Shown: positions 9,885 through 37,256 of the stretch, piece after piece
How the letters are laid out: every line of letters begins with the position of its first letter
How positions within the stretch are numbered: position 1 is the stretch's first letter
Virus record (IMG/VR): IMGVR_UViG_3300031669_000108
Span: 1 to 37,256 of that record
Source: a virus
Reading direction: 5' to 3' (one strand)
Length of the DNA: 37,256 nucleotides
The notes under the pieces: generated by a model
Seen by the model: only the letters and a program-made list of their open reading frames with translations
What the model was told of the DNA's origin: nothing
The model's database searches: none
Program-made: the position numbers and the translations under genes

Positions 9885-9918
9885 AGGGTAAGTCTTTAAT
9901 TAGGCTTACCCTCTTTTT
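9885..9918 (+). terminator. Rho-independent terminator after the capsid operon (T-phi analogue)
   Basis: agggtaagtc (9885-9894) pairs with ggcttaccct (9903-9912), then cttttt. Confidence 0.7.
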
Positions 9919-15477: not shown

Positions 15478-18400
15478 AATAGATGTAGAAGAAAAAGATA
15501 CTTTAGCTAGTGCTGGTATAAATGTTGGAGAAACTACTACTACTTATGAACCTGATTCTTTTGAAAGGATTAAAGAAAAATTAAAACCTATACCTAGAGT
15601 TGATATAAAATCAAATGGAGCTAGTGTATCTGTTTATGATCCTAAAAACAAAATGACAGTAAATACAAATCTATCTGATGTAAATGCTATAAGATTTATG
15701 GAAGATGTCGGATTAAAAAGTAAATCAAGAGCAGATTATTTTGGAATGCAACCTATCTATGAAAAAGAAGATTTTTCAACAATGAGTAAGTCTTTTGCTA
15801 GAAGTGGTATTGAAATGACACAAACTCTAGCACAGCATTTTAATAGAGAGTTATTAAAAAGAGAACACTTAGATAAAGAAGGATTACAAAAAGCTATTGA
15901 TTCAGGAGATATTAAAACCGGAGAAGAGTGGGCTAAAGCTAGAAAAGACTTTATTAACTATGATGAAGTAGAAAGACAAATGAATATTATTAAAGATAAT
16001 AACAATTCTTTTATAAAAAGATTAGGTCTTGAAGCAACAGGTAATGAAGGTTTTATGAGTGATCTATTCTCAGGAGGAGCAAGTATTGTTGGAGCAATAG
16101 GATTAACTTATGCAACAAAAAATCCTTTAGCTGTAGGAACTGCTTTTGGATTAGTGCAAAAAGAAAGCACAATTACAGAGATGTTGTCTAATAACATTGA
16201 TTATCAAACAGCTGAGAAATATTCAAGTATAGCAGGTATTGTTGAAGGTGGATTAGAATCAGTTGGATTACATCTGTTATTTAAAGGTTTTAAAGGCAAT
16301 ACTGTTATTAAAAGAGTTGTAAATGGTTTTATTGTGGAGAGTATTCAAGAGGGTTCACAAACAGCATCAGAAGAAATTATAATGCAAACAGTAGGAGGAA
16401 GAGAAAAAGAGTTTTTAGCTACTTTAGGAGATATTGGTTATTCTGCATTAATAGGTGGTATATTAGGTGGTGGGATATCTTCTTTAGCTATAAACTCATC
16501 AAAAAAATTACAAAAAGAATTTGGACTAACAAAAGAGCAGGCTGATGAATTAACAAATAAAATAGTAGAAAAATCTTTAAGCAATCAAGAAGTTATTGAT
16601 GAAGCTAGTAATATATTAAAAAGAGAATCTTCTAATTTAACTTATAAAGATGGAGATTTTAATAAAAGTATTCAACACTTTAAAGAAACAATAGAAGGCA
16701 ATCAAAAGAGGTTTGAAGAAGGTCAGGATATCAGGGATATGGTTGAGAAAGATTTATCAACCTCTGATTATGCAAAAGAATTAACTTCACAAGCTAAAGC
16801 TGATATGACAGAGTTATTAGTTAATCAAGCTCAGATGTTTGCTGAGTCAGGTAATAGAATTGGTGTTTCTCCTAGAGAGTTTTACGAAGCAAATATGGCA
16901 ACTGATGTTAGAGAAGGGGTTATCGAAGGTGTAACCTTTGATGAAGAAGCTGGAGTAATGAAAGATGCTGATGGGAATGAGTTGTTTCAACTCCCTGATA
17001 ATGCTTATAGTGAAAAAGGACAAGTTAAAACAGAATCTCCAGAGTTTAAAAACTGGTTCGGAGATAGTGTTATTCGAAATGGGGCACATAAGCCCACACC
17101 TGTTTATCACGGAACAAGGTCTTCTTTTGATGAGTTTAAAAAACAAAATGTTAATTATGCTGCGTATTCTAAAAACTTTTACTTTACAAAAAATATAAAT
17201 AGAGCAAAAGATTTTGGAGACACTGTTATGGAGGTTTATTTAAAGGCAGAACACCCAATAAACACCAAGCGTTCAGTTTCTAAAGAGCAGGTTGATGTCG
17301 CTAATATAGCATTAGAAGATAATGGTTATGATACCATAACTGGAGAACAAGGCAGTGGAACATACACTACTGGGGAAAACTTCTTAAATGATTTAGGTGT
17401 AATGACAGAGCAAGATTATGACTTTGTTTTGAAAGCTATGGGATATGATTCAATTATAGCAGATGAGGAGATAGTTGTTTTCGACCCTACACAAATAAAA
17501 TCAGTAGATAACACAGGAACATTTGACCCACAAGATGCTAATATATTTTATCAAGGAGAAAAAGCCCCTACTGGTAAATACAATCCAGTATCAAGAATAA
17601 TTACAATGCTATTCGACTCTAATGTAACAACTCCTTTCCATGAAAGGTTAGGACATCATACTCTCGAACAAATGAGAGTTATGAATGATTTATATATTGA
17701 AAAGACTGGGGATAACTGGGAAGTATGGAATGATTTAGAAAGCTGGGTTGGTAAAGTTGCTCCAAGTGGTTTAACAAAAAAACAACATGAGAAATTTGCC
17801 GATGGTTATATAAAATTCCTAAAAGAAGGGAAAGCTCCTACTGGTAGATTAAAAGCTGTATTTGTTAGAATGTCAGAGTTATTTAAAGACATATATAATA
17901 AGGCTCTTAACAATAATATTGAATTAAATGAAAGTGCAAGAACACTTTACAAAACTATTCTAACAAGTCCTTATGCTAACTCTGTTGAATATTACCAACA
18001 ACTAAGTGATGATGTTGCTAAAGCTTCTAAGGACATAAGAGAGGGTAAATATAAAGATGTTTCTCCTGATAAACTTGCTGAATTAAATGAGTTAATAGAA
18101 CAGGCTAATATAAAAATTCCGAAAGAACCACAGGACTTTATTCAATATGTTCGTGAAAGAGGTGGAATAAACTTAAATACTGCTAAATTACTTGATTTAA
18201 CAAAATTAGGAGAGTTTGATAAAGCTGTTGGTTATAAAGGATTATTCAAGTCAACTTCTAAAAATAATGAAAATGACTTAACTGAAATGATGTCGGAATT
18301 TACAGGACAAGATGCTTATGAAGTAGAATCTACTGAAGCAGTTGATTTCTTTATAGAAGCTCTTGATGAGCCTGTTTATCGCCCTGAAGATTTAGAAGTA

Positions 18401-21046
18401 ATTAAAGCAATAGAAGATATAAATAGAAACAGAGAGATTATACTTGATACTCTTGGAGAAACAAAAGAACTTAAAAAAGAACTTAAAAGAGCTAAGAAAT
18501 ATCAAGACATAGGATTTACTGAGGTTGCTAGTGCTGAATTAGTAAGTAAAATGGTTGAAATAGATAAATTAAGAAAAGATAAAAGGCTTGATTCTCTGAC
18601 TAGAGAAGAAATAAAAGCAATGCAAAAAGAGATTACAAATTTAATTAAAGCTTTACCTATTAGTAAAGAAGGTCAATCTCAATTCTTAACAACTATTAAA
18701 AATGTAAATACTCCAATTCAATTTAGAAATGCTTATAAGAATATTCTTAATAGAGCAACTAACATATATGGTAAAGAAATAAGAAATAAAACTGCTGAAG
18801 CTATTGACAAGAAAATAAAACAGATGTCTGAAAATGTTGTTAGTGGAGTTAGAAAAGGTAAATATGATTATAATACAAATAAAACATTTGCTGATTTAAA
18901 AAGATATAACTCTATGAATAAAGAAGATGCTTTTAAAGAATGGGAGAAACTTAAAAAATCAGGAGAAACTGCAAGTTATATAAGAACAAGATTTTTAACA
19001 ATGAAAGTTTTAGGTAAAAAAGATGGTTCTGTTGAATTGTTTAAAAAAGTATATAGTGATTTATTAGCTTTAGAAAAACAAGGGAAAGAAAAAACACATC
19101 TAAAAGACTTTATTGAAAAAGAGCAAGAAATATCTGATATTGAAAAAGTTAAAGGAATAATTAAAGGAGTTAAGCCTGCTAGTAAGTTAGCTATAACATT
19201 TGATTTAGCTATGGGTAATTTCAAAAGTTTATTAAATTCTTTAGGAGGACAAAAACTTTCTAAGATGAATCTTATAAGATCACAGAAAAACGAAGAAGTA
19301 TCAAGATTTGCTAAAATAGAAGAATTAAACTCTATTGTAAGAAATGCTTATGACATAAAGCATAATGAAGTTCCGTTTAAAATGTCTGAAAATTCTCATG
19401 ATAACGAATATAAATTATTTTATAAAGATAAAACTCTTGGAGAGGTTAATTTAACTAAATCTAATATAATAAGTGTTTATAATTTAATTAAGAACCCTAA
19501 GATAAAAGAAGATTATTATAATACCTTTGGAGAGCTACAAGTTGATAGTTTAATAAACAATTTAACATCTGAAGATAAAGCTTTTGGAGATGGATTAACT
19601 GAGTTCTTTGAAGAATATTATACTGAAATGAATGAAATATTTATAGAGTTAAATGGTGTTGATTTAGGAAAGCCGGAGAATTACTTCCCTAGCTCATCAG
19701 AACATCAAACTTATGATGATATATTTAACGATTATGTGGGACAATCAAATATTCCTAGTAGCTTTAAATCAAAAGTAAAAGGAACAGTTATACCTAATCC
19801 TAAGATAGATTCTTATGGAATAGTTGTTAAGTATATAAGTCAAGCAGAAAGAATTAAAAATGTATCAAGAGAACAACAAAGATTATTAAAGATATTTAAA
19901 GATTTAGGCATTAAAAATATTATAACTAATTTATATGGAGCTAAGGTTTATCAGAATTTAATTAAGAAGTTAAATAGTTATGGTCTTGAAGGAATAGCAA
20001 AAGAACACGATTCTATTACTGGTTTTTTTAATAGGCTGTTAGCTAATTGGACTGGTGCTAAGGTTGGTTTAAATCCTTCTGTTGCATCAAAGCAGTTAAT
20101 ATCTATATTAAATTTTTCAAATGGAGTTAATAAAAAGACTTTTAGTAAGTATTTAGTTGAAGGTATGAAGACTCCTAAGAAAACTTGGAAGTTTATGCAC
20201 GAAGGTTCAGAATACATAGGAGTTAGAGAAAAACGAGGTGGTTCAGATATGATAACTCGTATGATATCTAATGCCGAACAAGACATAAATAAAATAGATA
20301 GAAAATTACAAAAATTAGGATATAATGAAATTACAGTTAAAAACTTTATTTCCTGGACTCAAAGAAAAGGAGATATAACTCCATTTATCTTTGGTGGTTA
20401 TGCTAAAGTTAAATATTTTATGAGTGAAGAAGGTGGAAGCTTAAGTAAAAAAGAAGCCTTTGAGAAAATGGAAGATGAAGGATTAGAAACACAACAATCA
20501 GGTTTATCTTCTATGCAATCGGATTTACAAAATAGAGGTGGTTATTTAAAAACTTTAACACAGTTTAAAAACGCTCAACATCAATATTATGCAATAATGA
20601 AAAATGCTACTCAAGATTATTTAAGAGGAGAGATTTCTAAAGAAAGATTAGCTGAGATATATATAATTTATGGAGTTGTTAATCCTGCTATATTCGGAGC
20701 AATAGCTTATGGTTTTGGATCAGGTCTAAAACATCTTGGTGGAGATGATGATGATGATAATATTTTAAAAGAAATGGGTCGTGCTATGGCTACTCAAGTT
20801 GCTGGAGGAGTTCCTTTGTTTGGTAAAGTATGGGAAGAAGCAATAAGAGGAATGACAAAAGGTTATACTTTTGGAGGTGGAACACCAGTAATAAGTGATA
20901 TATTAGGAGCAATGCAAGGATACGGTAATAATTTTGATGTTGATGTTGCTGAGGTAATAGAAGTTCTTATAGAAGGTGGGGTTGGAGTTCCAATTCAAAC
21001 ACCAATAAGATATAGTAAGAAAATAGGAAAAATAATAACACAATGA
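15461..21046 (+). CDS. Giant internal core / ejection protein (gp16 position), polyvalent with an ART-like module
   Basis: 1,861 aa. Gly-rich hydrophobic segments (nt ~16060-16500 and ~20660-20730) and an internal ART-PolyVal-like module. Confidence 0.6.
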   Translation: MTEQNKIDVEEKDTLASAGINVGETTTTYEPDSFERIKEKLKPIPRVDIKSNGASVSVYDPKNKMTVNTNLSDVNAIRFMEDVGLKSKSRADYFGMQPIYEKEDFSTMSKSFARSGIEMTQTLAQHFNRELLKREHLDKEGLQKAIDSGDIKTGEEWAKARKDFINYDEVERQMNIIKDNNNSFIKRLGLEATGNEGFMSDLFSGGASIVGAIGLTYATKNPLAVGTAFGLVQKESTITEMLSNNIDYQTAEKYSSIAGIVEGGLESVGLHLLFKGFKGNTVIKRVVNGFIVESIQEGSQTASEEIIMQTVGGREKEFLATLGDIGYSALIGGILGGGISSLAINSSKKLQKEFGLTKEQADELTNKIVEKSLSNQEVIDEASNILKRESSNLTYKDGDFNKSIQHFKETIEGNQKRFEEGQDIRDMVEKDLSTSDYAKELTSQAKADMTELLVNQAQMFAESGNRIGVSPREFYEANMATDVREGVIEGVTFDEEAGVMKDADGNELFQLPDNAYSEKGQVKTESPEFKNWFGDSVIRNGAHKPTPVYHGTRSSFDEFKKQNVNYAAYSKNFYFTKNINRAKDFGDTVMEVYLKAEHPINTKRSVSKEQVDVANIALEDNGYDTITGEQGSGTYTTGENFLNDLGVMTEQDYDFVLKAMGYDSIIADEEIVVFDPTQIKSVDNTGTFDPQDANIFYQGEKAPTGKYNPVSRIITMLFDSNVTTPFHERLGHHTLEQMRVMNDLYIEKTGDNWEVWNDLESWVGKVAPSGLTKKQHEKFADGYIKFLKEGKAPTGRLKAVFVRMSELFKDIYNKALNNNIELNESARTLYKTILTSPYANSVEYYQQLSDDVAKASKDIREGKYKDVSPDKLAELNELIEQANIKIPKEPQDFIQYVRERGGINLNTAKLLDLTKLGEFDKAVGYKGLFKSTSKNNENDLTEMMSEFTGQDAYEVESTEAVDFFIEALDEPVYRPEDLEVIKAIEDINRNREIILDTLGETKELKKELKRAKKYQDIGFTEVASAELVSKMVEIDKLRKDKRLDSLTREEIKAMQKEITNLIKALPISKEGQSQFLTTIKNVNTPIQFRNAYKNILNRATNIYGKEIRNKTAEAIDKKIKQMSENVVSGVRKGKYDYNTNKTFADLKRYNSMNKEDAFKEWEKLKKSGETASYIRTRFLTMKVLGKKDGSVELFKKVYSDLLALEKQGKEKTHLKDFIEKEQEISDIEKVKGIIKGVKPASKLAITFDLAMGNFKSLLNSLGGQKLSKMNLIRSQKNEEVSRFAKIEELNSIVRNAYDIKHNEVPFKMSENSHDNEYKLFYKDKTLGEVNLTKSNIISVYNLIKNPKIKEDYYNTFGELQVDSLINNLTSEDKAFGDGLTEFFEEYYTEMNEIFIELNGVDLGKPENYFPSSSEHQTYDDIFNDYVGQSNIPSSFKSKVKGTVIPNPKIDSYGIVVKYISQAERIKNVSREQQRLLKIFKDLGIKNIITNLYGAKVYQNLIKKLNSYGLEGIAKEHDSITGFFNRLLANWTGAKVGLNPSVASKQLISILNFSNGVNKKTFSKYLVEGMKTPKKTWKFMHEGSEYIGVREKRGGSDMITRMISNAEQDINKIDRKLQKLGYNEITVKNFISWTQRKGDITPFIFGGYAKVKYFMSEEGGSLSKKEAFEKMEDEGLETQQSGLSSMQSDLQNRGGYLKTLTQFKNAQHQYYAIMKNATQDYLRGEISKERLAEIYIIYGVVNPAIFGAIAYGFGSGLKHLGGDDDDDNILKEMGRAMATQVAGGVPLFGKVWEEAIRGMTKGYTFGGGTPVISDILGAMQGYGNNFDVDVAEVIEVLIEGGVGVPIQTPIRYSKKIGKIITQ
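17035..17560 (+). other. ART-PolyVal-like ADP-ribosyltransferase domain within CDS 15461-21046
   Basis: SPEFKNWFGDSVIRNGAHKPTPVYHGTRSSFDEF...NFYFTKNINRAKDFGDTVMEVYL...IVVFDPTQIKSVDNTGTFDPQDANIFYQ. Recognised from memory of the family consensus and not HMM-verified. Confidence 0.6.
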
Positions 21047-21113: not shown

Positions 21114-23774
21114 ATGTTTATAAGAGAAAATTTAGGAACAGACACAGGACAATCAGGACAAGCATTTTCAATGTTTACCTACAAAACAGATGATAGCAAA
21201 GAAACTGTTTTGACTGATAATTACTTTAATGATGTATATAACTCATTTAGAGCAGGTGATTATGTGTTTGTTAGTGGTTTAGAAGGAACATATTACATAA
21301 AATGTTCTAGTATAAATTCAGGAACTAAAACAATAAGCTTTGAGGAAGACTCTTTATTAAGTAGTGCTTTTAACTATATAGACTTTCTAACTAATTTAGA
21401 TAATCCTGATTATAAAGAAGGAAGATTATTTTATGACAGTTCTTTAAAAACTTTATCTCATTATACAGATATAGAAAATATTGGTCCTTTAACAATAAAC
21501 AGAGAGTTAGTATCTAGGGGAACTAATATTACAGGGAATGTAATCACAAAAGGAACAGTTTGTATAGCTGGTCCACTTGCACTGGACAACATTGGTGCAT
21601 TACATATATCAGCTATTCCTGAAAAAGCAAATACTATTAAAAATGCACAAAGCTTATATGGGTTAGCTATGCATGATATTCCTGATGGAGAGAGTGGAAT
21701 TTTTGCAATTACATCATCTATATCAGGTGTTGATACTTCTGCTTGGGAAAATGGAGATTTACTATACTGGAGTTGTTCTGATATTGGAGAACTTACTAAT
21801 GTTAAACCAAAAGCCCCAGATTATGCAATTAGAGTTGGTGGTGTTATTTCAAAAGATGCCGTTAATGGTGTAATAGTTGTTGCCATATCTACTTATGACA
21901 ATTCTGATACTGGAGTTAACTTAGAAGGTGCATTAAATGGAATATGCACTCAGAAACAAAAAGTTGAATTTGTTGTTGATGGAGGTGTAGTATATGCTGA
22001 TGTTAGTAATTTAAATAATCCAACAGAAAATTTACCTTTTATTATAGATGGTAAAAGATATTTACTTAATACTACTACAGGTTCAGGAGTTGGTGGTTCT
22101 TCAAGAATTGCTTTAGTTTCAGCTCCTATAAATGAAGTTCAACAAAATTATATATATATAGAAAATCCTTCTAGCCCTGCTTTAAATGTTTCTTCTACAG
22201 AACCTACTGGAGATGTGGTAATATTAGGTAGGGCTCAATTAAAAACATTAGCAGAAACAGATGCTGATGGTGTATTATCTTGGCAAAGATATAATAATTC
22301 AGTAGAGGAATCATCAGGAGATGGTATTATAAGAGCTTTAATGGATAAAATAAGAAGTTTAGGAGCAAGTTATATATCTGGAGTAGATCCAACAATAACT
22401 ATTACTACTAATCCATTAGCAGTAGATTCAATAAAACTAGAAACAACATCTGGTATAGTTTCACAAGCTCGTAAAGATGTTTTTGATGCTTTAGATGGAA
22501 CTTCTTACTATATAGTAAACCACCCTACAGAGCCATTTAAAAAGATTTCAAACTTAAATGAGATTGATATTGATGCTAACGGAGATTCTTTATTTCTTAA
22601 TGGTATTAGATATGGATTAAATATTATTTACGGACAAAATTCAAATGGAGATGGAGGAGCTTCTGATAGAGCTTATGTTTTATTACCTAATGGTAGTTAT
22701 AATTCTGATATAGGGTGTATAAATGATATAAACAATTTTGCAAATACAAGTATGCCTAATAATTTTTCAGATAATTCATTTAGAACATTTAGGTTATGTT
22801 TTGGTTATACTAATGCAGATAATGGAACTATAACAAATATAATTGGTGTTAATTCATATCAAGATGAAAGAGGGTTTTCTCTTGGAGGAGGAGGAGGAGG
22901 AGGAGGTTCTTCTTCTATAGTTAATTTCTCCGATGGTGTATTTACTTGGTTTAATTCGGTAGATCCAACAAAAGTAGTTAAAGTTGATGTAAGTGGAGTT
23001 TCTACTGGAACTATAAGAAATTTAATATTCCCTGATAAAGATGGAACAATAGCATTATTAAGCGATGTAAAATTACCTAAAGGCTACATAAATGGTGGTG
23101 TTATAAGTAATAATGTAGGTGTGCCTTTAAAAACAATAGACATAACAGATTGTTTAGCTCGTTCTAGTGATGATACACAAGATTTAATTGTTAGTTCAGG
23201 AAGTTTAAATATAGATACAGCAGGAGATTGGGCTAGTGGCTCTGTTCCTACTTTAACAAATGCTAGTATATTTGTATGGGCTGATTATAATTCAGGAACT
23301 CAGAGATTTATATTAGATGATGCAACAGGTTCAAATATAGCAGGGGCAAAAAGAAGAACAGGTGCTTTTATTACTGATGCTAGTGGGGATATAATAGGAT
23401 TTACATCATTTGAATTAACAGGTGGAGCTGTTAGATATAAATATAAAAACCATATATTAGACTTATCAACAACTACTATTTCTACTGGTTCAAGAACAGC
23501 ACAGGCTTTGTCTGTTCCTCCTAATACTAAGGCAGAGATAAATACAAGATTTATCCACAATCCTACATCTAATTTAATTATTACAGAAGAAGGAGAAAAC
23601 GATTCTGCTCCTACAGATGGTAATTATACTCATAGATGTGTTAGCAATCAACCATCTATAATAGTATCTAATTATAATGTTAATAATAACAGTCAGATAT
23701 ACTATAGGGGAGATATAGCTAGTCTTACAGGTATATTTACGATTCAAACACTAGGATATAAGGAGAATAGATAA
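21114..23774 (+). CDS. Tail fibre / tail spike (receptor-binding protein)
   Basis: 886 aa, after the core proteins. Ser/Thr/Asn/Gly-rich with an internal poly-Gly linker. Confidence 0.6.
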   Translation: MFIRENLGTDTGQSGQAFSMFTYKTDDSKETVLTDNYFNDVYNSFRAGDYVFVSGLEGTYYIKCSSINSGTKTISFEEDSLLSSAFNYIDFLTNLDNPDYKEGRLFYDSSLKTLSHYTDIENIGPLTINRELVSRGTNITGNVITKGTVCIAGPLALDNIGALHISAIPEKANTIKNAQSLYGLAMHDIPDGESGIFAITSSISGVDTSAWENGDLLYWSCSDIGELTNVKPKAPDYAIRVGGVISKDAVNGVIVVAISTYDNSDTGVNLEGALNGICTQKQKVEFVVDGGVVYADVSNLNNPTENLPFIIDGKRYLLNTTTGSGVGGSSRIALVSAPINEVQQNYIYIENPSSPALNVSSTEPTGDVVILGRAQLKTLAETDADGVLSWQRYNNSVEESSGDGIIRALMDKIRSLGASYISGVDPTITITTNPLAVDSIKLETTSGIVSQARKDVFDALDGTSYYIVNHPTEPFKKISNLNEIDIDANGDSLFLNGIRYGLNIIYGQNSNGDGGASDRAYVLLPNGSYNSDIGCINDINNFANTSMPNNFSDNSFRTFRLCFGYTNADNGTITNIIGVNSYQDERGFSLGGGGGGGGSSSIVNFSDGVFTWFNSVDPTKVVKVDVSGVSTGTIRNLIFPDKDGTIALLSDVKLPKGYINGGVISNNVGVPLKTIDITDCLARSSDDTQDLIVSSGSLNIDTAGDWASGSVPTLTNASIFVWADYNSGTQRFILDDATGSNIAGAKRRTGAFITDASGDIIGFTSFELTGGAVRYKYKNHILDLSTTTISTGSRTAQALSVPPNTKAEINTRFIHNPTSNLIITEEGENDSAPTDGNYTHRCVSNQPSIIVSNYNVNNNSQIYYRGDIASLTGIFTIQTLGYKENR
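22884..22904 (+). repeat. (GGA)7 trinucleotide repeat encoding a poly-Gly linker
   Basis: ggaggaggaggaggaggagga then ggt, in frame with the fibre ORF. Confidence 0.9.
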
Positions 23775-24325
23775 TGACATATATAAGAACAGAAAACGGA
23801 TTAGAGAAATTTACAGAAGAAGAAGCTACAGCTTATGAAAATGGCTATCTAATTTATGAAAATAGAGAATGGACTATTGATACAACTTGTCCTGAATACT
23901 TAACTTGCAAAAGAAATGAAAAACTAGCAGAGCTTAAAGTAAAAATGCAAGAGTATCAAGACACTTATATTAAGTTTAATAATAGTAGGTCAGATTATTA
24001 TATTAAATCAACTGATAAAACAAAAAGTAATATTTTACAAAAATACAACTTAATAAAAGAAAATGTTGTTGGTGGTTATTGGTATGCTGATGGTGTTTAT
24101 ATTGAAGGTATAGCAACTTCACAAGCTACTAAAATAAATTTAGATTATCAACCTTTGCTTGATTTATTTATAGCTATTGGAGAATACTTTGAAACTATGA
24201 TAGATGCTTATTTAGATTGTAAATTAGAGATAAATTCAGCAACTACACCAGCAGAATTAGAAGTTATTGATTTAGATAGTATTAACTGGGGAAGTAATGA
24301 TATAGGAGCATTTGACAATGTATAA
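23774..24325 (+). CDS. Hypothetical protein downstream of the fibre gene (possible fibre accessory or assembly factor)
   Basis: 183 aa. ATGA-type overlap with the fibre stop. Assigned by position only. Confidence 0.35.
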   Translation: MTYIRTENGLEKFTEEEATAYENGYLIYENREWTIDTTCPEYLTCKRNEKLAELKVKMQEYQDTYIKFNNSRSDYYIKSTDKTKSNILQKYNLIKENVVGGYWYADGVYIEGIATSQATKINLDYQPLLDLFIAIGEYFETMIDAYLDCKLEINSATTPAELEVIDLDSINWGSNDIGAFDNV

Positions 24326-24443
24326 ACTAAAAGAAAAAACAAAAGATAAAAAGAAAGATAAAAAGAAATATAAGAAAAATGTTTATAAATTAGCTAACAG
24401 AACTAGCAATAAAATGAGAGGTCTTATTTATGGAGAAGGCTAA
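24318..24443 (+). CDS. Possible lysine-rich peptide (41 aa)
   Basis: MYKLKEKTKDKKKDKKKYKKNVYKLANRTSNKMRGLIYGEG. Contains the 12-bp x2 tandem aaagataaaaag (24342-24365) and overlaps both neighbouring genes. Confidence 0.25.
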   Translation: MYKLKEKTKDKKKDKKKYKKNVYKLANRTSNKMRGLIYGEG

Positions 24444-25936: not shown

Positions 25937-26030
25937 ATATAAATTTGACTTGACTGACCCTGCTGTTGTAAATTTAAACCAACATAATATGGAAACAATA
26001 AAATCACACGAGGAGGATTGTTATGAATAA
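25836..26030 (+). CDS. o-spanin (Rz1-like outer-membrane lipoprotein)
   Basis: MKKHKELKTLMLVLVATSILNGC: signal peptide plus lipobox L-N-G-C. Starts within the i-spanin gene (overlapped architecture). Confidence 0.65.
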   Translation: MKKHKELKTLMLVLVATSILNGCSLKGISIQDCKYKFDLTDPAVVNLNQHNMETIKSHEEDCYE

Positions 26031-26454
26031 ATTAAATCCAATTATAGATGAATTTGAGGAATGCTATCTTTTTGCTTATGCAGATGATGGGGGCATAGCA
26101 ACTATTGGTAGAGGGACAACACATTACATTAATGGTAAGCCAGTTGAAATGGGAGATGAAATAACAGAAGATAAAGCAGATGCTTATTATTTCCACGATA
26201 TAAAAAAAATATATAAAAAATGTAAGTTTCCTAAATGGCTTGGTGTTAATCAAAAAATAGCATTAGAAAGCTTAGTGTATAATGTTGGTATTTCTGCATA
26301 TAACAAGTCTAAATTAAAAATAGCTATTGATAACAAGGACTTGAAAGAAATATATAAGCAATGGGATTGGATTTATATAAATAAAACCCCTGCTCGTGGA
26401 CTAGCTAGAAGAAGAGCATTAGAATTATATTATTTTATGAAAGATAAGATTTAA
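26023..26454 (+). CDS. Endolysin, GH24 (T4/lambda-type lysozyme)
   Basis: IIDEFEECYLFAYADDGGIATIGRGTTH matches the E...D..G..TIG.G catalytic region of GH24 lysozymes. Confidence 0.85.
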   Translation: MNKLNPIIDEFEECYLFAYADDGGIATIGRGTTHYINGKPVEMGDEITEDKADAYYFHDIKKIYKKCKFPKWLGVNQKIALESLVYNVGISAYNKSKLKIAIDNKDLKEIYKQWDWIYINKTPARGLARRRALELYYFMKDKI

Positions 26455-26455
26455 T

Positions 26456-26869
26456 ATGTTCGATTCGCAAAATAAGTTTACACTAAATATTAATCTGTAT
26501 TCTAGTAAAAATAGCAAGCAAATTAGATATAATCGCAAAACTAATCGTAGTTTTATAACTAAAAGTAATAATTGCATAGCAAAAGAGCCTGTTTTAATGC
26601 AGTGTTTATTAAATTCTAAACAAGACTGGCTAAAATTTATTAGAGGCACTGAAAAGCCCTTAAAACTAGGTATATATATTTACAGAAAAACTAAACATAC
26701 TTTTGATTATATAAATATAGTTCAACAATTATTTGATTGTATGACAAAATGTAATTATTGGGTAGATGATGATTCAAAGAATGTTGAACCTATTTTTTTA
26801 GGTTGTGATTATGACAAAGATAATCCCAGAATTTACTTTTACTTGATTGATGAAATTAAATTAAAATAA
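26456..26869 (+). CDS. RusA-like Holliday junction resolvase (divergent)
   Basis: PLKLGIYIYRKTKHTFDYINIVQQLFDCMTKCNYWVDDDSKNV aligns by eye with E. coli RusA [42 protein letters not shown]. The D72-equivalent residue is Ile. Confidence 0.45.
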   Translation: MFDSQNKFTLNINLYSSKNSKQIRYNRKTNRSFITKSNNCIAKEPVLMQCLLNSKQDWLKFIRGTEKPLKLGIYIYRKTKHTFDYINIVQQLFDCMTKCNYWVDDDSKNVEPIFLGCDYDKDNPRIYFYLIDEIKLK

Positions 26870-27054
26870 ACTTAATCTTCTTTGATTTTTAAGTTGTTTC
26901 CAAAATGGAAATAACTGCAAAGCCTTTGCTGATATATAAAATCTTCTTTGACTGTTATGTTATGAAAATCCAATATTAAACTTATGCTAACTTAATAAAT
27001 ATCATAATATACATAAATATATTAGTGTATAAAAAAACATAGAAAACTCATATA

Positions 27055-27089
27055 AGTAAAAAAGACTACCTAAATAAATAAGTAGTCTT
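27055..27089 (-). terminator. Intrinsic terminator oriented for the minus strand
   Basis: On the minus strand: aagactac-ttatttatttag-gtagtctt followed by tttttac. On the + strand the same hairpin is followed only by aattta. Confidence 0.45.
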
Positions 27090-27183
27090 AATTTAGCTAC
27101 CACCGAGAAAAGCCCAGAAATAGCAGATACCCATTGCTGGGATTAATATAGTGAAGTCTGAAATGTCTGACTTACTATTTAAC
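27055..27183 (-). ncRNA. Predicted ~130-nt minus-strand small RNA
   Basis: Bounded by the minus-strand promoter (27218-27190) and a minus-strand intrinsic terminator (stem 27089-27082 with 27069-27062, then a U-run from 27061-27055). No ORF. The body is locally GC-richer with two more hairpins. Confidence 0.3.
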
Positions 27184-27189
27184 TATTAA

Positions 27190-27218
27190 TATATAGCATA
27201 ACTATTATTGTTTGTCAA
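27190..27218 (-). promoter_or_regulatory. Minus-strand sigma70-like promoter TTGACA-17 nt-TATATA
   Basis: Reverse complement of 27213-27218 is TTGACA, and of 27190-27195 is TATATA. The -35 box and spacer (TTGACAAAcAATAATAGTT) recur at 27562-27544. Confidence 0.4.
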
Positions 27219-27286
27219 GTTATTGATTTTAAAGAGATTTTAAAGAGATTTTAAAGAGATTTTAAATGTATATAAGTGTATATAAA
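27200..27286 (+). repeat. Direct repeat copy A (contains three 11-bp units)
   Basis: aactattattgtttgtcaagttattgatttt + (aaagagatttt)x3 + aaatgtatataagtgtatataaa. Copy B starts exactly 100 bp downstream. Confidence 0.9.
27231..27263 (+). repeat. 11-bp x3 perfect tandem repeat aaagagatttt (iteron-like)
   Basis: Units at 27231-27241, 27242-27252 and 27253-27263. A fourth copy lies at 27331-27341. Confidence 0.9.
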
Positions 27287-27307
27287 AAAATGTATTTTTG
27301 TTTATTC

Positions 27308-27364
27308 TTGTTTGTCAAGTTATTGATTTTAAAGAGATTTTAAATGTATATAAGTGTATATAAA
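27308..27364 (+). repeat. Direct repeat copy B (one 11-bp unit)
   Basis: ttgtttgtcaagttattgatttt + aaagagatttt + aaatgtatataagtgtatataaa, identical to copy A apart from two missing 11-bp units. Confidence 0.9.
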
Positions 27365-27533
27365 TAACATTACCTAACTGTAACTTTTTTACTAAAATAT
27401 GTTATATCTTCTCCTATTACTCCTACATAACTATAATTTATCTTACTTCTCCTTTTAATATTTTATTATCTTTAATATCATATTCTATCTCTCTTTCTTT
27501 CTACACAACAACACTATATTGCTGATATTATTT

Positions 27534-27562
27534 ATTATTACACAACTATTATTATTTGTCAA
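27534..27562 (-). promoter_or_regulatory. Minus-strand sigma70-like promoter TTGACA-17 nt-AATAAT
   Basis: Reverse complement of 27557-27562 is TTGACA, and of 27534-27539 is AATAAT. It would transcribe the G-free tract as a C-free, purine-rich RNA. Confidence 0.35.
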
Positions 27563-27585
27563 ATAAAAATAAATTATTTTTTTAC

Positions 27586-27660
27586 TTGCAATTAAAATAG
27601 AAATGCTTTAACTTGTATATATATCGATTCGGATATAATAAACTAAGAAGGGAAAATATT
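27586..27660 (+). promoter_or_regulatory. Early promoter/leader cassette 1 (TTGCAA-17-TAACTT, TGTATATA box, CGATTCGG box, AAGGGAAAA SD)
   Basis: One of three paralogous ~80-bp cassettes (the others at 31650 and 33046). First promoter after the non-coding island. Confidence 0.55.
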
Positions 27661-27900
27661 ATGGGAACATTACACGAACATATAAGTAAAAAAGACTTAG
27701 ACAAAGACTGTAAAAGATGTGGAGGAGAATATAACACAAACGATAGAGTCAGGTGTATGACTTGTGGAAACTTAAATCCTAAGTTAAGAGCAAAAGAAGT
27801 TAAATCTCCATTTAGTAAAGATTATGTATGCACTATATCTAAAGAGGATTTAGCAGACCAACAAGATATGAGAAATCAAAAGGCAGGTTTAAGATGTTAA
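27661..27900 (+). CDS. Early zinc-ribbon protein (79 aa)
   Basis: MGTLHEHISKKDLDKDCKRCGG...RCMTCGN. ATG 27661 follows the conserved SD; the ORF-track start 27613 lies within the leader. Confidence 0.6.
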   Translation: MGTLHEHISKKDLDKDCKRCGGEYNTNDRVRCMTCGNLNPKLRAKEVKSPFSKDYVCTISKEDLADQQDMRNQKAGLRC

Positions 27901-28076
27901 CAACAAAAGAAATAAATAAATATCATAAAACAAGATTAAAACATAGAGTTAAATACTGGAAAAGTATGTATGAAGCTAAAGAAACATATTCAAGTAGTAA
28001 TGATAGAGTTTATATTTCTATTATTTGTATAATAATGATTATAAACATAATACTATTAGTTAAAACAGGAGGATAA
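27894..28076 (+). CDS. Small membrane-anchored protein (60 aa)
   Basis: C-terminal TM helix VYISIICIIMIINIILLV. Confidence 0.5.
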   Translation: MLTTKEINKYHKTRLKHRVKYWKSMYEAKETYSSSNDRVYISIICIIMIINIILLVKTGG

Positions 28077-28080
28077 ATAA

Positions 28081-28341
28081 ATGAAGATAGAGGAAAATAC
28101 ATTATATGCTATAATGGTAAGTGAAAGAGAACCTTATGGATTACAAAAAGCATATATAAGAGGAGAAGAAATTGTTTTTATTAGAAATAAAGCAGGAGTT
28201 CATTCTTGGCATTGTAATTATTTAAAATTAAACCATTCAGATATAGAAGGTTTTATATTAAATGGAAACTATTATAGAGATGAGATAGATGTTTTAAAAA
28301 AGCATTACAAAGAAATAGAACATAAAATTTACAAAGGATGA
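28081..28341 (+). CDS. Hypothetical early protein (86 aa)
   Basis: ORF track, with aggagg upstream. Confidence 0.6.
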   Translation: MKIEENTLYAIMVSEREPYGLQKAYIRGEEIVFIRNKAGVHSWHCNYLKLNHSDIEGFILNGNYYRDEIDVLKKHYKEIEHKIYKG

Positions 28342-28476: not shown

Positions 28477-28662
28477 ATGACATATCAAGAAACATTTAAT
28501 CAGACATTAAAAGATATTAGAATGGTTTGTAATGCTACAGGCAACGAATCATTAGCTAATACTATAGTTAAGAGATTATTTGACTTTTCAGATGAATTAA
28601 AAAATAACGATTTAATAAAGGACACAGACAATGACACAACAATCGAAAACTACGACAAATAA
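28477..28662 (+). CDS. Hypothetical acidic protein (61 aa)
   Basis: ORF track, with aaagga upstream. Confidence 0.55.
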   Translation: MTYQETFNQTLKDIRMVCNATGNESLANTIVKRLFDFSDELKNNDLIKDTDNDTTIENYDK

Positions 28663-29305
28663 AGACCCAGCAGTATTATTATATACAAGTGATTTCTTAA
28701 CAGGAACACTATTTATGAACTATGAAGAAAAAGGTAAATATATAACCTTGCTTTGTATTCAACATCAAAAAGGAAGATTAACAAAAGAAGAGTTATTTTC
28801 TATTTGTAGTAAGGAAGATGTTAAAGTTATCTCTAAGTTTTCTATTGCAAAAAATGGACTTTACTTTAATAAAAGATTAGAAGATGAATCTATTAAAAGA
28901 AAAAAATACTCTGAAAGTCGCAGAAACAATAGACTTAATAAGAATAAAGATAAAGAAGATATAAATAACATATGTAAAACATATGATAAACATATGGAAG
29001 ATGAAATTGTAAGTAAAGATAATATAGTATTTGAAGATTTTTATTTACAATACCCAATTAAGAAATCTAAAGTTCAAGCATTAAGAAACTGGAATAGATT
29101 ATCAGAAACTATTAAAAGCAAATGTATCGATGTTGTAAATAGCAAAGAATTTAAAGACTGGGTAGAAAAGCAAGATAATAAATATATTAAACACCCTAGC
29201 ACTTGGTTAAGTCAAGGTTGTTGGGAAGATGAGCTAGAGATAAAACCTAAAAGCAGTTTAGATGATGATGAGCTATTTAAAAAAGCATTGGAGAGTTCAA
29301 AATGA
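28631..29305 (+). CDS. Replication organiser / initiator-like protein (DUF1376-like N-terminus)
   Basis: DPAVLLYTSDFLTGTLFMNYEEKGKYITLLCIQHQKG (DUF1376/YdaU-like) and FEDFYLQYPIKKSKVQALRNWNRL...HPSTWLSQGCWEDE (common in phage replisome organisers). Immediately upstream of the helicase. Confidence 0.55.
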   Translation: MTQQSKTTTNKDPAVLLYTSDFLTGTLFMNYEEKGKYITLLCIQHQKGRLTKEELFSICSKEDVKVISKFSIAKNGLYFNKRLEDESIKRKKYSESRRNNRLNKNKDKEDINNICKTYDKHMEDEIVSKDNIVFEDFYLQYPIKKSKVQALRNWNRLSETIKSKCIDVVNSKEFKDWVEKQDNKYIKHPSTWLSQGCWEDELEIKPKSSLDDDELFKKALESSK

Positions 29306-30198
29306 GTATATTACTAGAAGAACAAAAAAGAGCTGGTTATGTTGGTAGATTTGGAATACCATACTTAGATGATAAGCTAGGTTATATACTTGCAACAGAT
29401 TTTATTCTTGCAGGAGCTAGAAGTGGAGCAGGTAAGACAACAATATCAACTATTATAGCAATGGCAAATAAAGACAATAAGGTATGTTTATTTAGTTTAG
29501 AAAACTTTGCAAATGATTCTTTATTACAAGAAGCTTATGCTATTTATTGTAAATTAAACAAAAAATATGATTTAAGTTTAAGACAAATACTTTCTAGTAA
29601 GCATAATGAAGAAGTTAATTGGGATGTTTGGGAAAAAGCAGAATGTCAAGCTAAAGAAAAATTTGAACATATAAGATTGATTAGTCGTAGTGATGGTTAT
29701 AACTTAGAAAATTTAAAAAGAGATTGGGAGCAAGCAGTAGCAGATGGTTATAAATTAATAATATTAGACCATATAGACTATTTAGACAAAGTAAATGCTG
29801 GTGATAGTGATGTTATGCATATCTCCGAAATATGTAAAGAAATAAGGAAAATACAAAACAAAACACCTTGTGGACTATTTGCACTATCACATTTAAGAAA
29901 AACAGTTAGTAAAGAGCCACCAGCAGTCCCAAGTATTGATGAGTTTATAGGTTCAAGTAATAAAGTAAAAGAAGCAACTTGTGTATTAATGTTCGCACCT
30001 AACGACAAGAGAAATGAGGAAATTTTAAAAGATACAGGAAATGAGAATTTAAAATCAACCTTTTGTTGTATAAGAAAACTTAGGAATGGTGGTTTTAGTA
30101 ATAAAGTAGGTATAATGTATTTCAATAGAAATAAAAATAACTATGAATCAGATTATCAAGAAAAAATAGTTAGTTATAGTGGGGAGGTAAAAGAATGA
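29302..30198 (+). CDS. DnaB-type replicative helicase, RecA-like C-terminal core only
   Basis: GIPYLDDKLGYILATDFILAGARSGAGKTT (Walker A) and LIILDHIDYL (Walker B). At 298 aa it lacks the DnaB N-terminal domain. Confidence 0.7.
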   Translation: MSILLEEQKRAGYVGRFGIPYLDDKLGYILATDFILAGARSGAGKTTISTIIAMANKDNKVCLFSLENFANDSLLQEAYAIYCKLNKKYDLSLRQILSSKHNEEVNWDVWEKAECQAKEKFEHIRLISRSDGYNLENLKRDWEQAVADGYKLIILDHIDYLDKVNAGDSDVMHISEICKEIRKIQNKTPCGLFALSHLRKTVSKEPPAVPSIDEFIGSSNKVKEATCVLMFAPNDKRNEEILKDTGNENLKSTFCCIRKLRNGGFSNKVGIMYFNRNKNNYESDYQEKIVSYSGEVKE

Positions 30199-30898: not shown

Positions 30899-31334
30899 AG
30901 AATTTATGAAACAATGGATTATGCACCCACTACTAAGAAAAAAGATTAAAGAATATAAATCAGATGATCTTGTATGTGATATAATGGTTTATTCAACTTG
31001 GTTAAGTAATCAACAAAACAAAACATTCCATACATTATTATCTTGTTATTGGTCTAGTGGTTGTTGTAGTGATGAAGACTATGAAGCATTAAGAAGCAGG
31101 TTTAAAAAACTTGTAGGACTTATAACTGTTAGTGAAACAACAGCAGGAAATTATAAGGTAATACAAGAAAAAGAGGTTTCGTGGTCTAAGGTTAAAAAAG
31201 AAGATGCTACGATAGCAATAAAATCTTTAATAGATGAAATGTTTGAAAGTGGAGTAAACACTCCAGCATTTCAAAGAATAATGATAGGATTAGGGGATAT
31301 ATTCCCTGATGCAAAGGTAGGTAGAAATGAGTAA
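30882..31334 (+). CDS. NinB/Orf-like recombination mediator (tentative)
   Basis: SNQQNKTFHTLLSCYW... and ...VSWSKVKKEDATIAIKSLIDEMFESGVN loosely parallel lambda NinB (SLDQNRKLWACLGDV...STSRMRVGEFAELLELIQAFGTERGV). Confidence 0.3.
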   Translation: MIRGNKEFMKQWIMHPLLRKKIKEYKSDDLVCDIMVYSTWLSNQQNKTFHTLLSCYWSSGCCSDEDYEALRSRFKKLVGLITVSETTAGNYKVIQEKEVSWSKVKKEDATIAIKSLIDEMFESGVNTPAFQRIMIGLGDIFPDAKVGRNE

Positions 31335-31641
31335 TTTTAAAAAAGAAAGAATACAAGATAAACAATGGCTGGCTTTTGCTAAAGAAATGAATTGTATGTT
31401 TTGCAGAGTAAAAAACGATACTGTTATAATGCACCATATAAGAGCAGGAGGTGGTGGAGGTATGGGAATGAAACCATCTGATAACCTCGTTGTCCCGACT
31501 TGTTTTTTATGTCATTCAGAAATAGAGCGAATCGGAGAAATACCTTTTTATAAACAATACAATTTTACAGTTCCTGAGCTTAAAAGTATAGCAATAAATA
31601 TGTATGAAAGATATATATACAATAAAAGTAAAAATAATTAA
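31327..31641 (+). CDS. DUF968-like His-Cys box protein (putative nuclease)
   Basis: MHHIRAGGGGGMGMKPSDNLVVPTCFLCHSEIERIG fits the HH...G.G.KPsD..vvPLC..CH pattern of DUF968/NinG-neighbourhood proteins. Confidence 0.4.
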   Translation: MSNFKKERIQDKQWLAFAKEMNCMFCRVKNDTVIMHHIRAGGGGGMGMKPSDNLVVPTCFLCHSEIERIGEIPFYKQYNFTVPELKSIAINMYERYIYNKSKNN

Positions 31642-31649
31642 TAAAAAGC

Positions 31650-31727
31650 TTGCAATTTATTTAAATATGCTTTAACTTGTATATATACCGATTCGGTATT
31701 AAACAAAATTAAGAAAGGGAAAATCTT
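31650..31727 (+). promoter_or_regulatory. Early promoter/leader cassette 2 (TTGCAA-17-TAACTT, TGTATATA, CGATTCGG, AAAGGGAAAA SD)
   Basis: Near-identical core to cassette 1: gctttaacttgtatatata(t/c)cgattcgg. Confidence 0.55.
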
Positions 31728-32318
31728 ATGGAAAAAATAGATGTATCAATGTATAAAGACTATGCTCTATTAAGAGAAAGTATAGGAACTTTACAGAAGA
31801 GTGGTGTTAATCCTCATTTTAAAAATACTTATGTTGAATTAAATACTGCTTTACAAGAGGTAGATAAACATATCGGAGAAAATAATTTTATATGTTTCAT
31901 TCAAGCACCAATAACTATTGATGGGAAAAATTATCTTAATACTAAATTGATTCATAATACAGGAAGTTTTATTGAAGCAAACTTAGAGTTATTAACAGTA
32001 AGGGTAGACCCACAAATGTTAGGTTCATCTTTAACTTATGCAAGAAGAAATAGTTTATTAACGGTTCTTGGATTACAAGCTACTGATGATGATGGAGAAG
32101 ATAGCTCTGGTAGAGGTAAAATAGGAGAAAAGGAAAAAGCTAAGCTTGAAAAAGAAAAGAAAAAAAGAGAATTATTTGAAAAGTTAAAAGCTTGTAAAAC
32201 AGTTGAAGCTATTGATGTTATAGTTGATAGTCTTGAAGAAAAAGTAAAAACAGAAAAATTTATAGTAACTATAAATAAATTAAAAGAAAAAATAGGAGAA
32301 AAAGAAGATGTTAAATAA
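31728..32318 (+). CDS. erf: ERF-family single-strand annealing protein
   Basis: GVNPHFKNTYVELNTALQEV and PQMLGSSLTYARRNSLLTVLGLQATDDDGE match ERF hallmarks (NPHFKskYa.L...; Q..GSalTYaRRY.L...G....DDDG). Confidence 0.8.
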   Translation: MEKIDVSMYKDYALLRESIGTLQKSGVNPHFKNTYVELNTALQEVDKHIGENNFICFIQAPITIDGKNYLNTKLIHNTGSFIEANLELLTVRVDPQMLGSSLTYARRNSLLTVLGLQATDDDGEDSSGRGKIGEKEKAKLEKEKKKRELFEKLKACKTVEAIDVIVDSLEEKVKTEKFIVTINKLKEKIGEKEDVK

Positions 32319-32733
32319 AGTAATGTTAATTGGTAGAGTAGGTAAAGATCCTGAAATAAGAAGTTTTCAAAACGGTGGTAGAGTGGCTAATTTTTCATTA
32401 GCTACATCTGATAAATGGAAAGATAAAACTACTGGAGAAAATAAAGAAAAAACAGAATGGCATAATATACAAGTTTTTGGTGGATTAGTTTCTGTAATTG
32501 AAAATTATTGTAGCAAAGGAACTATGTTATATCTTGAAGGGGCTTTACAAACTAGAAGTTATGAAACTAACTCAGGAGAAAAAAAGTATATAACTGAAGT
32601 TGTTTTAAATGGATTTGGAAACAAACTAAATATATTAAGTTCTAAAGATGACAATAAAGTAAATAATAAAGAAGTTAAACAAGAAAAGTCTAATTATGAA
32701 GAAAATGATTTTGATGATGACATCCCATTTTAA
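32308..32733 (+). CDS. ssb: Single-stranded DNA-binding protein
   Basis: MLNKVMLIGRVGKDPEIRSFQNGGRVANFSLATSDKWKDK...TEWHNIQVFG OB-fold, with the acidic tail ending DFDDDIPF. Confidence 0.92.
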   Translation: MLNKVMLIGRVGKDPEIRSFQNGGRVANFSLATSDKWKDKTTGENKEKTEWHNIQVFGGLVSVIENYCSKGTMLYLEGALQTRSYETNSGEKKYITEVVLNGFGNKLNILSSKDDNKVNNKEVKQEKSNYEENDFDDDIPF

Positions 32734-32744
32734 GGAGGAATACT

Positions 32745-33038
32745 ATGGAAGATAAGATGAAAAACAAAAAAATAATAACAGAGAAATTTGAGAAAATGCT
32801 AAAAGCTTGCAGATTAACTAAAAAGAATGCTTCAGTTATGCTAGCAACAACATATTTCACATATTATGAGAATCGAAAAGGAAAAACTAAGAGAAAAACA
32901 TTGTCTAAATATATGCTTTTGTATTTACTTTGTGAATTTTTCGTTAAGAAAAAGGATTTTAAGACAATCACAGATATTATGAAAGACACTGAAAGCTGGG
33001 AAGACAAAGGGATTGAGTTCTTAGATAAAAATAAATAG
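32745..33038 (+). CDS. Possible HTH regulator (97 aa)
   Basis: LKACRLTKKNASVMLATTYFTYYENRKG loosely resembles an XRE-type HTH. Strong SD taaggagg. Confidence 0.3.
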   Translation: MEDKMKNKKIITEKFEKMLKACRLTKKNASVMLATTYFTYYENRKGKTKRKTLSKYMLLYLLCEFFVKKKDFKTITDIMKDTESWEDKGIEFLDKNK

Positions 33039-33045
33039 TTTTTAC

Positions 33046-33119
33046 TTGCATAATATAAATATATACTTTATATTGTATATAAGGCGATTCGGAAAAACAA
33101 AACTAAGAAAGGGAAAATT
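33046..33119 (+). promoter_or_regulatory. Early promoter/leader cassette 3 (TTGCAT-17-TATATT, TGTATATA, CGATTCGG, AAAGGGAAAA SD)
   Basis: tttacTTGCATaatataaatatatacttTATATTgtatataaggCGATTCGGaaaaacaaaactaagaaagggaaaattATG. Confidence 0.55.
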
Positions 33120-34380: not shown

Positions 34381-34539
34381 ATGCTAAAAATAAATTTATT
34401 TTCTTTTTTTGAAACTATGTTTTTTGGATTTATAGGTATAATTATATTAGGTGATAATTGTGATTTTATGTTTTTGTTAGGTGTTATATTATATAATTTA
34501 ATAATTATAAAGAATATTATATTTAATAAAGGAGTATAA
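34381..34539 (+). CDS. Small two-TM membrane protein (52 aa)
   Basis: MLKINLFSFFETMFFGFIGIIILGDNCDFMFLLGVILYNLIII, with gggggag upstream. Confidence 0.45.
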   Translation: MLKINLFSFFETMFFGFIGIIILGDNCDFMFLLGVILYNLIIIKNIIFNKGV

Positions 34540-34574
34540 ACAATGCACTTATACGATAGAGTAGTAAATTGGAT

Positions 34575-37082: not shown

Positions 37083-37216
37083 TTAAGCTACTAAAAATAT
37101 TTTGGTATAGATATATAAAACAAGTAATGATATGTAATTGTGGTTCTTTAGATATTAGTTTTAGCAGAGAAATACCAATGAATTATTATTGTGGAAAGTG
37201 TGGTAAAGTATGTTAA
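37079..37216 (+). CDS. Small Cys-rich protein (45 aa)
   Basis: MIKLLKIFWYRYIKQVMICNCGSLDISFSREIPMNYYCGKCGKVC. ATGA overlap with the MTase stop. Its 3-prime part is duplicated at 1-87 by the closure overlap. Confidence 0.45.
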   Translation: MIKLLKIFWYRYIKQVMICNCGSLDISFSREIPMNYYCGKCGKVC

Positions 37217-37256
37217 AGCTACTAAAAAGACTATTCGCAGAAGATATTGAAAAACA
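37130..37256. repeat. Assembly closure overlap, copy 2 (identical to 1-127)
   Basis: See the feature at 1-127. Confidence 0.9.

Follow-up and report, generated by a model that had tools for sequence, protein, structure and literature searches.

A gene-free island between the late and early genes of a phage genome as a candidate transcriptional boundary with a predicted leftward non-coding unit

In lambdoid phages, control of early transcription is organised around back-to-back divergent promoters (pRM/pR): rightward early transcription runs through an initiator gene with iterons in its linker, and a short leftward RNA (lambda oop, P22 sar) ends at an intrinsic terminator. In lambda, the origin of replication lies inside the initiator gene O (the O/ori arrangement) and is activated by transcription from pR. 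The left end of T7 (terminal repeat, repeat arrays, A0 and A1-A3) lies between the late and early genes of a one-strand podovirus and combines short repeats with clustered strong promoters of host type, leftward ones among them. We analysed IMG/VR virus record IMGVR_UViG_3300031669_000108 over its 37,256 nucleotides (the window), in which a gene-free island (26870-27660) separates the late from the early genes and, in its predicted layout, resembles both systems in these respects; the likeness to lambdoid phages extends to the gene set, which includes RusA, Erf, SSB, an initiator and a DnaB-type ATPase.

On balance, and with rather more confidence than doubt, we read the island as a region that bounds and controls transcription in a podophage reliant on host RNA polymerase, whose DNA is probably packaged by the headful mechanism. 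The best reading by analogy is that it works like a lambdoid control region joined to a convergent-terminator boundary, with no encoded repressor. A preliminary description of this DNA had proposed a control centre, the start of early transcription, an origin or the genome ends; the control centre and the early start fit what follows, and the origin is probably elsewhere.

The island measures 791 nt, from the RusA stop codon at 26869 to the ATG at 27661, and its longest open reading frame (ORF) on either strand is 33 aa, bearing out the earlier statement that none reaches 60 aa. An ORF listed from 27613 (95 aa) is the frame of the downstream 79-aa gene with an upstream TTG start. In a gap census based on a simple gene call that admitted small ORFs preceded by a Shine-Dalgarno sequence, the island was 3.7 times the next-largest gap, the 216 nt between the small and large terminase genes; an apparent gap at 1456-2270 is occupied by small genes. 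Its uniqueness therefore stands, whereas the limit of 120 nt previously set for all other gaps does not, further gaps being of about 160-210, 151, 142, 140 and 135 nt. The genome had also been called unidirectional, and every credible gene is indeed on the + strand. GC skew is uniformly positive through the genome and falls to zero only at the island, which is 100% identical in two other assemblies (ENA L081 and JGI L082). The features of the island and its two flanking genes are as follows.

26456-26869, + strand: RusA, last late gene (family scan)
26870-27048, no strand assigned: untranslated tail after RusA, read directly from the sequence
26874-26885 and 26940-26951, no strand assigned: 12-nt direct repeat AATCTTCTTTGA
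26893-26916, + strand: hairpin in the tail after RusA
26917-26929, no strand assigned: 6-1-6 palindrome
27056-27089, - strand: intrinsic terminator, 11-pair stem (27089-27062) and six U (27063-27058)
27056-27183, - strand: candidate small RNA of ~127 nt, with a 5' hairpin, two internal hairpins, an A/U-rich linker and the terminator
27190-27218, - strand: P1, predicted leftward sigma-70-type promoter, TTGACA, 17 nt, TGC-TATATA (TGCTATATA), predicted start ~27183
27289-27318, - strand: P2, predicted leftward promoter, TTGACA, 18 nt, TACATT
27402-27520, no strand assigned: G-free tract of 119 nt, the longest in the genome
27534-27562, - strand: P3, predicted leftward promoter, TTGACA, 17 nt, TG-T-AATAAT, predicted start ~27527
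27570-27660, + strand: PE1 promoter-leader cassette, -35 TTGCAA (27586-91), -10 TAACTT (27609-14), CGATTCGG (27625-32)
27646-53, + strand: PE1 Shine-Dalgarno sequence AAGAAGGG, followed by the ATG at 27661
27661-27900, + strand: zinc-ribbon-like ORF of 79 aa, first early gene

The right ~90 nt of the island supported the earlier view of an early transcription start region, as they form one of three copies of a promoter-leader cassette of ~95 nt. The copies precede the first early gene, Erf and ORF 33120, in each case directly before an operon start, and a three-way alignment gave a mean column identity of 85%. The common layout is a -35 of the form TTGCA(A/T), a 17-nt spacer, a -10 of TAACTT or TATATT, TATATA, the motif CGATTCGG ~10 nt past the -10, a leader and the ATG; the leader AAACTAAGAAAGGGAAAAT before the ATG is nearly identical in all three and contains an identical Shine-Dalgarno sequence. 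A 21-nt exact repeat joins the first two copies (27603-27623 = 31667-31687). Exact matches to CGATTCGG are confined in the genome to the three cassettes, where, as a partial palindrome at each predicted transcription start, it might act as operator or 5' RNA element. The other two copies were placed by alignment:

31634-31727, + strand: PE2 cassette, upstream of Erf
33030-33119, + strand: PE3 cassette, upstream of ORF 33120

The other ~500 nt of the island look, from their sequence, like a leftward non-coding transcription unit. All five intergenic TTGACA sites on the + strand (1838, 5019, 8427, 21067 and 25439) are followed at 17-18 nt by a -10-like hexamer, which the intragenic TTGACA sites lack; by its sequence, the phage relies on host sigma-70-type promoters. 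On the minus strand TTGACA occurs five times in the genome, three of them within the island (2% of the genome), each with a -10-like hexamer: these are P1, P2 and P3. The extended -10 of P1, TGCTATAT, is that of the + strand promoter at 1838. P3 scores 11/12, making it the only minus-strand site in the genome to reach at least 11/12, and stands back-to-back with PE1. P1 and P3 have the same spacer sequence, and TTGACAAA is common to all three. The + strand promoter at 1838 is itself strong (1838-1932; TTGACA, 17 nt, TGC-TATATT), with a leader containing a 10-bp inverted repeat (AACTAGGTAT...ATACCTAGTT), and is followed by a small ORF (1949-2122).

The direct repeats, tandem array and G-free tract of the preliminary description were all confirmed. 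The tandem array comprises 3.8 copies of the 11-nt unit GATTTTAAAGA at 100% identity (27225-27266) and lies at -40 to -90 upstream of P1, with an extra copy (27325-27335) upstream of P2; a larger unit of about 45-65 nt is duplicated (27203-27289 and 27303-27367). The array and the duplicated unit may act as A/T-rich upstream promoter elements. Of three copies reported for the 19-mer aactattatt(g/a)tttgtcaa, two are full (27200-27218 and 27544-27562), and the third (27300-27318) is partial, sharing only TTGTTTGTCAA. The palindrome gcaaag-c-ctttgc and the 12-bp direct repeat near the RusA end are present, with positions one base off those first given. None of the island repeats occurs elsewhere in the genome. 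An IHF-site reading of the 11-mer array is not claimed, the IHF consensus being too degenerate; nor is DNA curvature, TTTTAAA being of the T-then-A tract type, which bends little.

These repeats might instead be operators for a DNA-binding protein, of phage or host origin, that switches transcription between its early and late phases, the leftward RNA then being incidental. The two full and one partial 19-mer copies each overlap a -35 box, the 11-nt array is phased and in every early cassette the partial palindrome CGATTCGG sits at the predicted start, all as operators might be arranged. Yet no helix-turn-helix, repressor or Cro-like protein was recognisable among the ORFs scanned, and the motifs are absent elsewhere in the genome. 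We consider this account distinctly unlikely as a replacement for the boundary and control region, with which it is compatible rather than mutually exclusive.

The predicted leftward unit ends at an intrinsic terminator that is the sole terminator-like site in 26400-28200, where shuffled sequences led us to expect 0.1; of the four hairpins of at least 11 pairs in the genome, it is the only one on the minus strand. Between RusA and PE1, the terminator scan found no canonical intrinsic terminator on the + strand. The minus-strand RNA from 27190 to 27052 folds at -39.4 kcal/mol (z -5.39; none of 200 shuffles as good), by comparison with -24.9 kcal/mol (z -2.60) for its + strand complement, and the stable fold is specific to the minus strand. 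Read from the sequence, one of the hairpins relies on G-U pairs, which on the + strand would become A-C mismatches, and the first hairpin starts at the predicted start of P1. The P1 unit accordingly combines what is expected of a small RNA gene, namely a predicted promoter, an intrinsic terminator, no ORF and a strand-specific fold beyond that of shuffles; the longest minus-strand ORF, of 33 aa, overlaps the terminator. A longer leftward RNA of 476 nt gave z -2.5, and the fold of the whole island as + strand RNA was unremarkable (z -0.35). Across the window there were no tRNA or tmRNA matches and none to Rfam 15 at gathering score, the island yielding only noise (E >=1.9). In searches for targets of the candidate small RNA, duplex folding returned only unrealistic long duplexes, and a contiguous-helix scan found nothing beyond the 19-nt repeat described below.

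Between P2 and P3 lies the G-free tract, which begins 530 nt after the last late stop codon and is untranslated in the rightward direction. With 28% purine (72% pyrimidine) it is the genome minimum, about five standard deviations from the mean of 59%, and the strand bias of composition is inverted only at the island. It contains the genome-maximum window for C over G (78 nt at 27437 with C=18 and G=0, or C 23% and G 0%), and of eight regions with a C-G excess of at least 10, the longest is 27349-27570. C-rich, G-poor untranslated RNA is what Rho loading sites look like, and the rightward reading, an untranslated C-rich, G-free stretch, resembles such a site (rut), for which untranslated RNA of at least ~78 nt with C above G is expected and is found here. 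Read leftward, the same tract gives a C-free, purine-rich RNA on which, judging by composition, Rho should load poorly. Elsewhere, 34416-34540 is C-free for 125 nt on the + strand, mirroring the tract; it is very A/T-rich, of low stability and contains small ORFs.

A different account is that the island apart from PE1 is mostly decaying or neutral DNA, for instance the remnant of a leftward lysogeny gene, with its elements fossils or chance. The minus strand is indeed 'sense-like' in composition, coding DNA in this genome can be C-free for up to 125 nt, and a distant 38-kb analogue (L093) carries a leftward integrase (22068-24293) right after its lysozyme, a position equivalent to that of the island. 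However, tblastn with the minus-strand frames found no protein similarity in 50,697 phage genomes, nor did the island match the integrase of the analogue. The perfect TTGACA boxes, intact terminator, strand-specific fold and 100% tandem identity are unlike decay, and a phage this tightly packed would be expected to shed 700 nt of junk. We therefore regard decay as unlikely.

In the boundary and control region that we favour, PE1 would drive rightward transcription through the small early genes and then the initiator gene, the probable site of the origin, much as lambda pR does. The leftward non-coding unit would have up to three TTGACA promoters (P3, P2 and P1), nested in duplicated A/T-rich upstream sequence, which would fire toward the end of the late operon and stop at the canonical intrinsic terminator; the products would range from a folded small RNA of ~127 nt from P1 to an RNA of ~470 nt from P3. 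The G-free tract would leave the untranslated leftward RNA C-free, and so a poor substrate for Rho loading, and on rightward read-through from the late operon, which has no intrinsic terminator of its own, it would offer a place for Rho to load. Rho loading and converging leftward transcription would together keep late transcripts out of the early genes on a circular or concatemeric template; the two readings of the tract and the converging transcription thus point to the island as an insulator that would shield the early genes from read-through of the late operon. What we observe are sequence elements with their statistics, an asymmetry between the strands and a triplicated cassette; from these we infer promoter firing, RNA accumulation, the involvement of Rho and any target in trans.

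Several points weigh against this interpretation. Promoter-like hexamers abound in DNA of 22% GC, and the promoter scans overall gave no more of them than shuffled sequence did; P1 has a -10 without the conserved final T, and the -10 hexamers of P2 and P3 are imperfect. The three island TTGACA copies sit in repeats and are hence not independent. From sequence, the rut and Rho-proof readings of the G-free tract are inseparable, although compatible, and the presence of Rho and Hfq in the host is an assumption. The three assemblies that carry the island are identical, and scans of phage, IMG/VR, metagenome and genome collections yielded no relatives of the island with which to check covariation or conservation.

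In these searches, the window DNA had no match in the 50,697 phage genomes, and IMG/VR held no relatives of the RusA, DnaB-like or endolysin proteins; the nearest RusA was 48% identical and not syntenic, and relatives of the initiator are mosaics without an equivalent island. The genome map of Methylophilales phage MEP301 is organised differently from that of the window. Exact-pattern scans for the candidate small RNA and the early promoter found nothing in IMG/VR and a metagenome collection, and a single-sequence covariance model of the small RNA had no match in 564 kb of loci. A 21-nt match to a Rhizobium genome in the genome collection lay in a GC-rich stretch with no flanking similarity and was read as chance.

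A 19-nt exact repeat CATATAAGTAAAAAAGACT connects the left part of the island (27049-27067) with codons 7-12 of the first early ORF (27679-27697). A match of this length was reached in 4 of 1000 Markov-simulated islands, so that chance is unlikely. Leftward read-through RNA would, through this repeat, be antisense to those codons, whereas a correctly terminated leftward RNA retains only about 10-12 nt of the complementarity, inside the terminator stem. A further proposal is that the opposite-strand non-coding unit, with its three promoters, Rho-proof C-free RNA and 127-nt small RNA, acts through RNA as a temporal switch or insulator: early expression would be shut off, and read-through from the late genes blocked, by head-on transcription together with the 19-nt match to codons 7-12, RNA here replacing the protein repressor and anti-terminator logic of lambdoid phages. 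We hold this to be doubtful.

The island had also been put forward as a replication origin. In the whole genome AACATATG occurs three times (28967, 28978 and 28989), at an exact spacing of 11 bp, all in the linker-coding part of the initiator gene:

28967-29060, no strand assigned: origin candidate, AACATATG x3 followed by an A/T-rich stretch, inside the initiator gene
28631-29305, + strand: replication initiator, 224 aa (family scan)

Relatives of the initiator were collected as 80 distant IMG/VR loci (33-61% amino-acid identity), of which 76 could be scored. CATATG palindromes, two to four at 11-12-bp spacing, were present 270-335 nt past the match start in 73 of the 76, with a density of 8.05 per kb at the array position by comparison with 0.36 per kb elsewhere; A-rich repeats of the GAAAAT type usually come after the array in those relatives that were sampled. 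With 11-bp spacing, successive copies fall in different reading frames, and the frame also varies among relatives, so it is at the DNA level that the array is conserved. By analogy with lambda O, it is probably the origin for the whole initiator family.

The island itself is very unlikely to be the origin. Its 11-nt array and duplicated units could be imagined as iterons, and its A/T-rich or G-free DNA as the element that unwinds: it has tandem and direct repeats, ranks with the least stable 200-400-bp stretches of the genome and lies 1 kb upstream of the initiator gene, and a leftward purine-rich transcript on a pyrimidine-rich template could in principle give an R-loop primer. Nevertheless, AACATATG is a much better candidate, being restricted to the initiator gene and matched by arrays at the equivalent place in the relatives in any reading frame, and an iteron origin would be expected to have an initiator-bound array in common with other phages that use this initiator, which in the relatives is the CATATG array and not the island repeats. 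The island lacks both CATATG and DnaA boxes (the genome-wide DnaA-box count being below chance), and its instability is matched at ~24.6, 33.3 and 34.4 kb. Cumulative GC skew, for which an inflection at the island had been suggested as a check, rises monotonically and shows none.

The location of the island between late and early modules, as in T7-like phages, had also suggested that it holds the physical genome ends, either as a T7-type direct terminal repeat collapsed by assembly or as a pac or cos site. Short repeats are present, and T7 too has a leftward host promoter, A0, beside its terminal repeat. The virion module can be called T7-like in the broad podovirus sense and not beyond it: its portal shares 25-30% identity with the portals of HTVC010P-type pelagiphages and MEP301, and the small terminase matches PF16677 (P22 gp3) with 50.4 bits, above the cut-off of 29.4. 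Small terminases of the P22 gp3 family accompany headful packaging that starts at a pac site within their own gene or close to it. For the large terminase, identity to proteins of proteobacterial phages such as BUCT708, phiAX1 and Mx9 does not exceed 40%, and Mx8, a relative of Mx9, is circularly permuted. Neither a phage RNA polymerase and T7-type replication genes nor a T7-type terminase and virion module was found in the ORF scans. The type of small terminase, the affinities of the large terminase and the lack of T7-type enzymes argue for headful packaging, probably from a pac site near the small terminase gene, although no pac-like repeats were found around that gene. Sequence searches of the PDB with both terminase subunits did not settle the packaging class, and the literature on the ends of pelagiphages and OM43 phages held no usable information on termini.

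Assembly data also argued against ends within the island. Contigs L081 and L082 run unbroken across it. In two Logan assemblies contigs break off inside the island, two of them ending at 27237 and another beginning at 27335, but these positions fall exactly on the borders of internal repeats and are assembly breaks, not molecule ends. The window termini share an exact overlap of 127 nt (1-127 = 37130-37256), which is elsewhere than the island and has the length of an assembler k-mer; it is an artefact of a circular contig, uninformative on the real ends, and the circularly closed assembly has a unique length of 37,129 nt with 29% GC. Overall, we think it very unlikely that the ends lie in the island.

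Gene order in the rest of the window was assigned by family scans (PHROGs and Pfam) of its ORFs:

3020-3478, + strand: small terminase (PF16677, P22 gp3 family)
3695-5014, + strand: large terminase
5731-7290, + strand: portal
8527-9408, + strand: major capsid protein
10508-13444, + strand: tail-tube-B-like protein
15461-21046, + strand: polyvalent protein, 1861 aa, with an ADP-ribosyltransferase domain
26023-26454, + strand: endolysin
29302-30198, + strand: DnaB-like ATPase
31728-32318, + strand: Erf
32308-32733, + strand: SSB

The initiator, DnaB-like ATPase, Erf and SSB make up the replication module, and the genome also carries a pair of DNA methyltransferase genes and numerous small ORFs; the PHROGs and Pfam scans of the ORFs revealed no recognisable RNA polymerase, DNA polymerase, integrase or repressor. 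Two HNH endonuclease genes are present (280-864 and 31327-31641), and homologues of the first adjoin the initiator gene in many distant relatives. The nearest homologues of the polyvalent virion protein (ART-PolyVal domain) are polyvalent proteins of about 25% identity in contigs of 34-38 kb, the closest of all being 27% identical. A terminator-promoter pair (8392-8455) lies directly 5' of the major capsid gene and a strong terminator (9885-9912) follows the next gene, which suggests that the capsid gene is a separately boosted transcription unit. The sole length difference among the assemblies is one 12-nt unit (24342-24353) of the tandem repeat AAAGATAAAAAG, within a 41-aa ORF, which is absent from ENA contig L081.

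Set against the systems it most resembles, the island has features of its own. Unlike in lambdoid control regions, its predicted leftward unit encodes neither a repressor nor any other protein and has three nested promoters, and where its candidate small RNA is encoded no coding gene lies on the opposite strand; the phage has no recognisable lysogeny genes and an HTVC010P-like podovirus virion. From the T7 left end it differs in that its promoter cluster points leftward, not rightward, and that a terminal repeat is only hypothetical; the scans also found no phage RNA polymerase, and the small terminase resembles P22 gp3. The G-free tract is like Rho-dependent terminators such as lambda tR1 in sequence, with at least 78 nt of predicted untranslated RNA with C 23% and G 0% past an operon without an intrinsic terminator, and differs from them in reading equally well on the other strand. 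The c4 RNA of P1 and P7 and the CI RNA of P4 offer a parallel for a small structured phage RNA with, here, 19-nt complementarity to the 5' coding region of the first early gene; however, the island complementarity lies in and beyond the terminator, with ~10-12 nt kept after termination, there is no Rfam match and no homology in sequence or structure, and no processing signals are known for it.

Nothing at this locus overturns current understanding; phage small RNAs, divergent control regions and initiator genes with an internal origin all have precedents. What is new is the reading of the other ~500 nt of the island, which by their sequence look like a leftward non-coding transcription unit. 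For an orphan lineage, the annotation gains a candidate phage small RNA, two classes of promoter and a likely origin placed in the initiator gene. Should the leftward unit prove real, it would show in compact form how a genome with a single direction of transcription can keep its late operon insulated from its early one when the template is circular or concatemeric, and would lengthen the short list of non-coding RNAs from apparently virulent phages.

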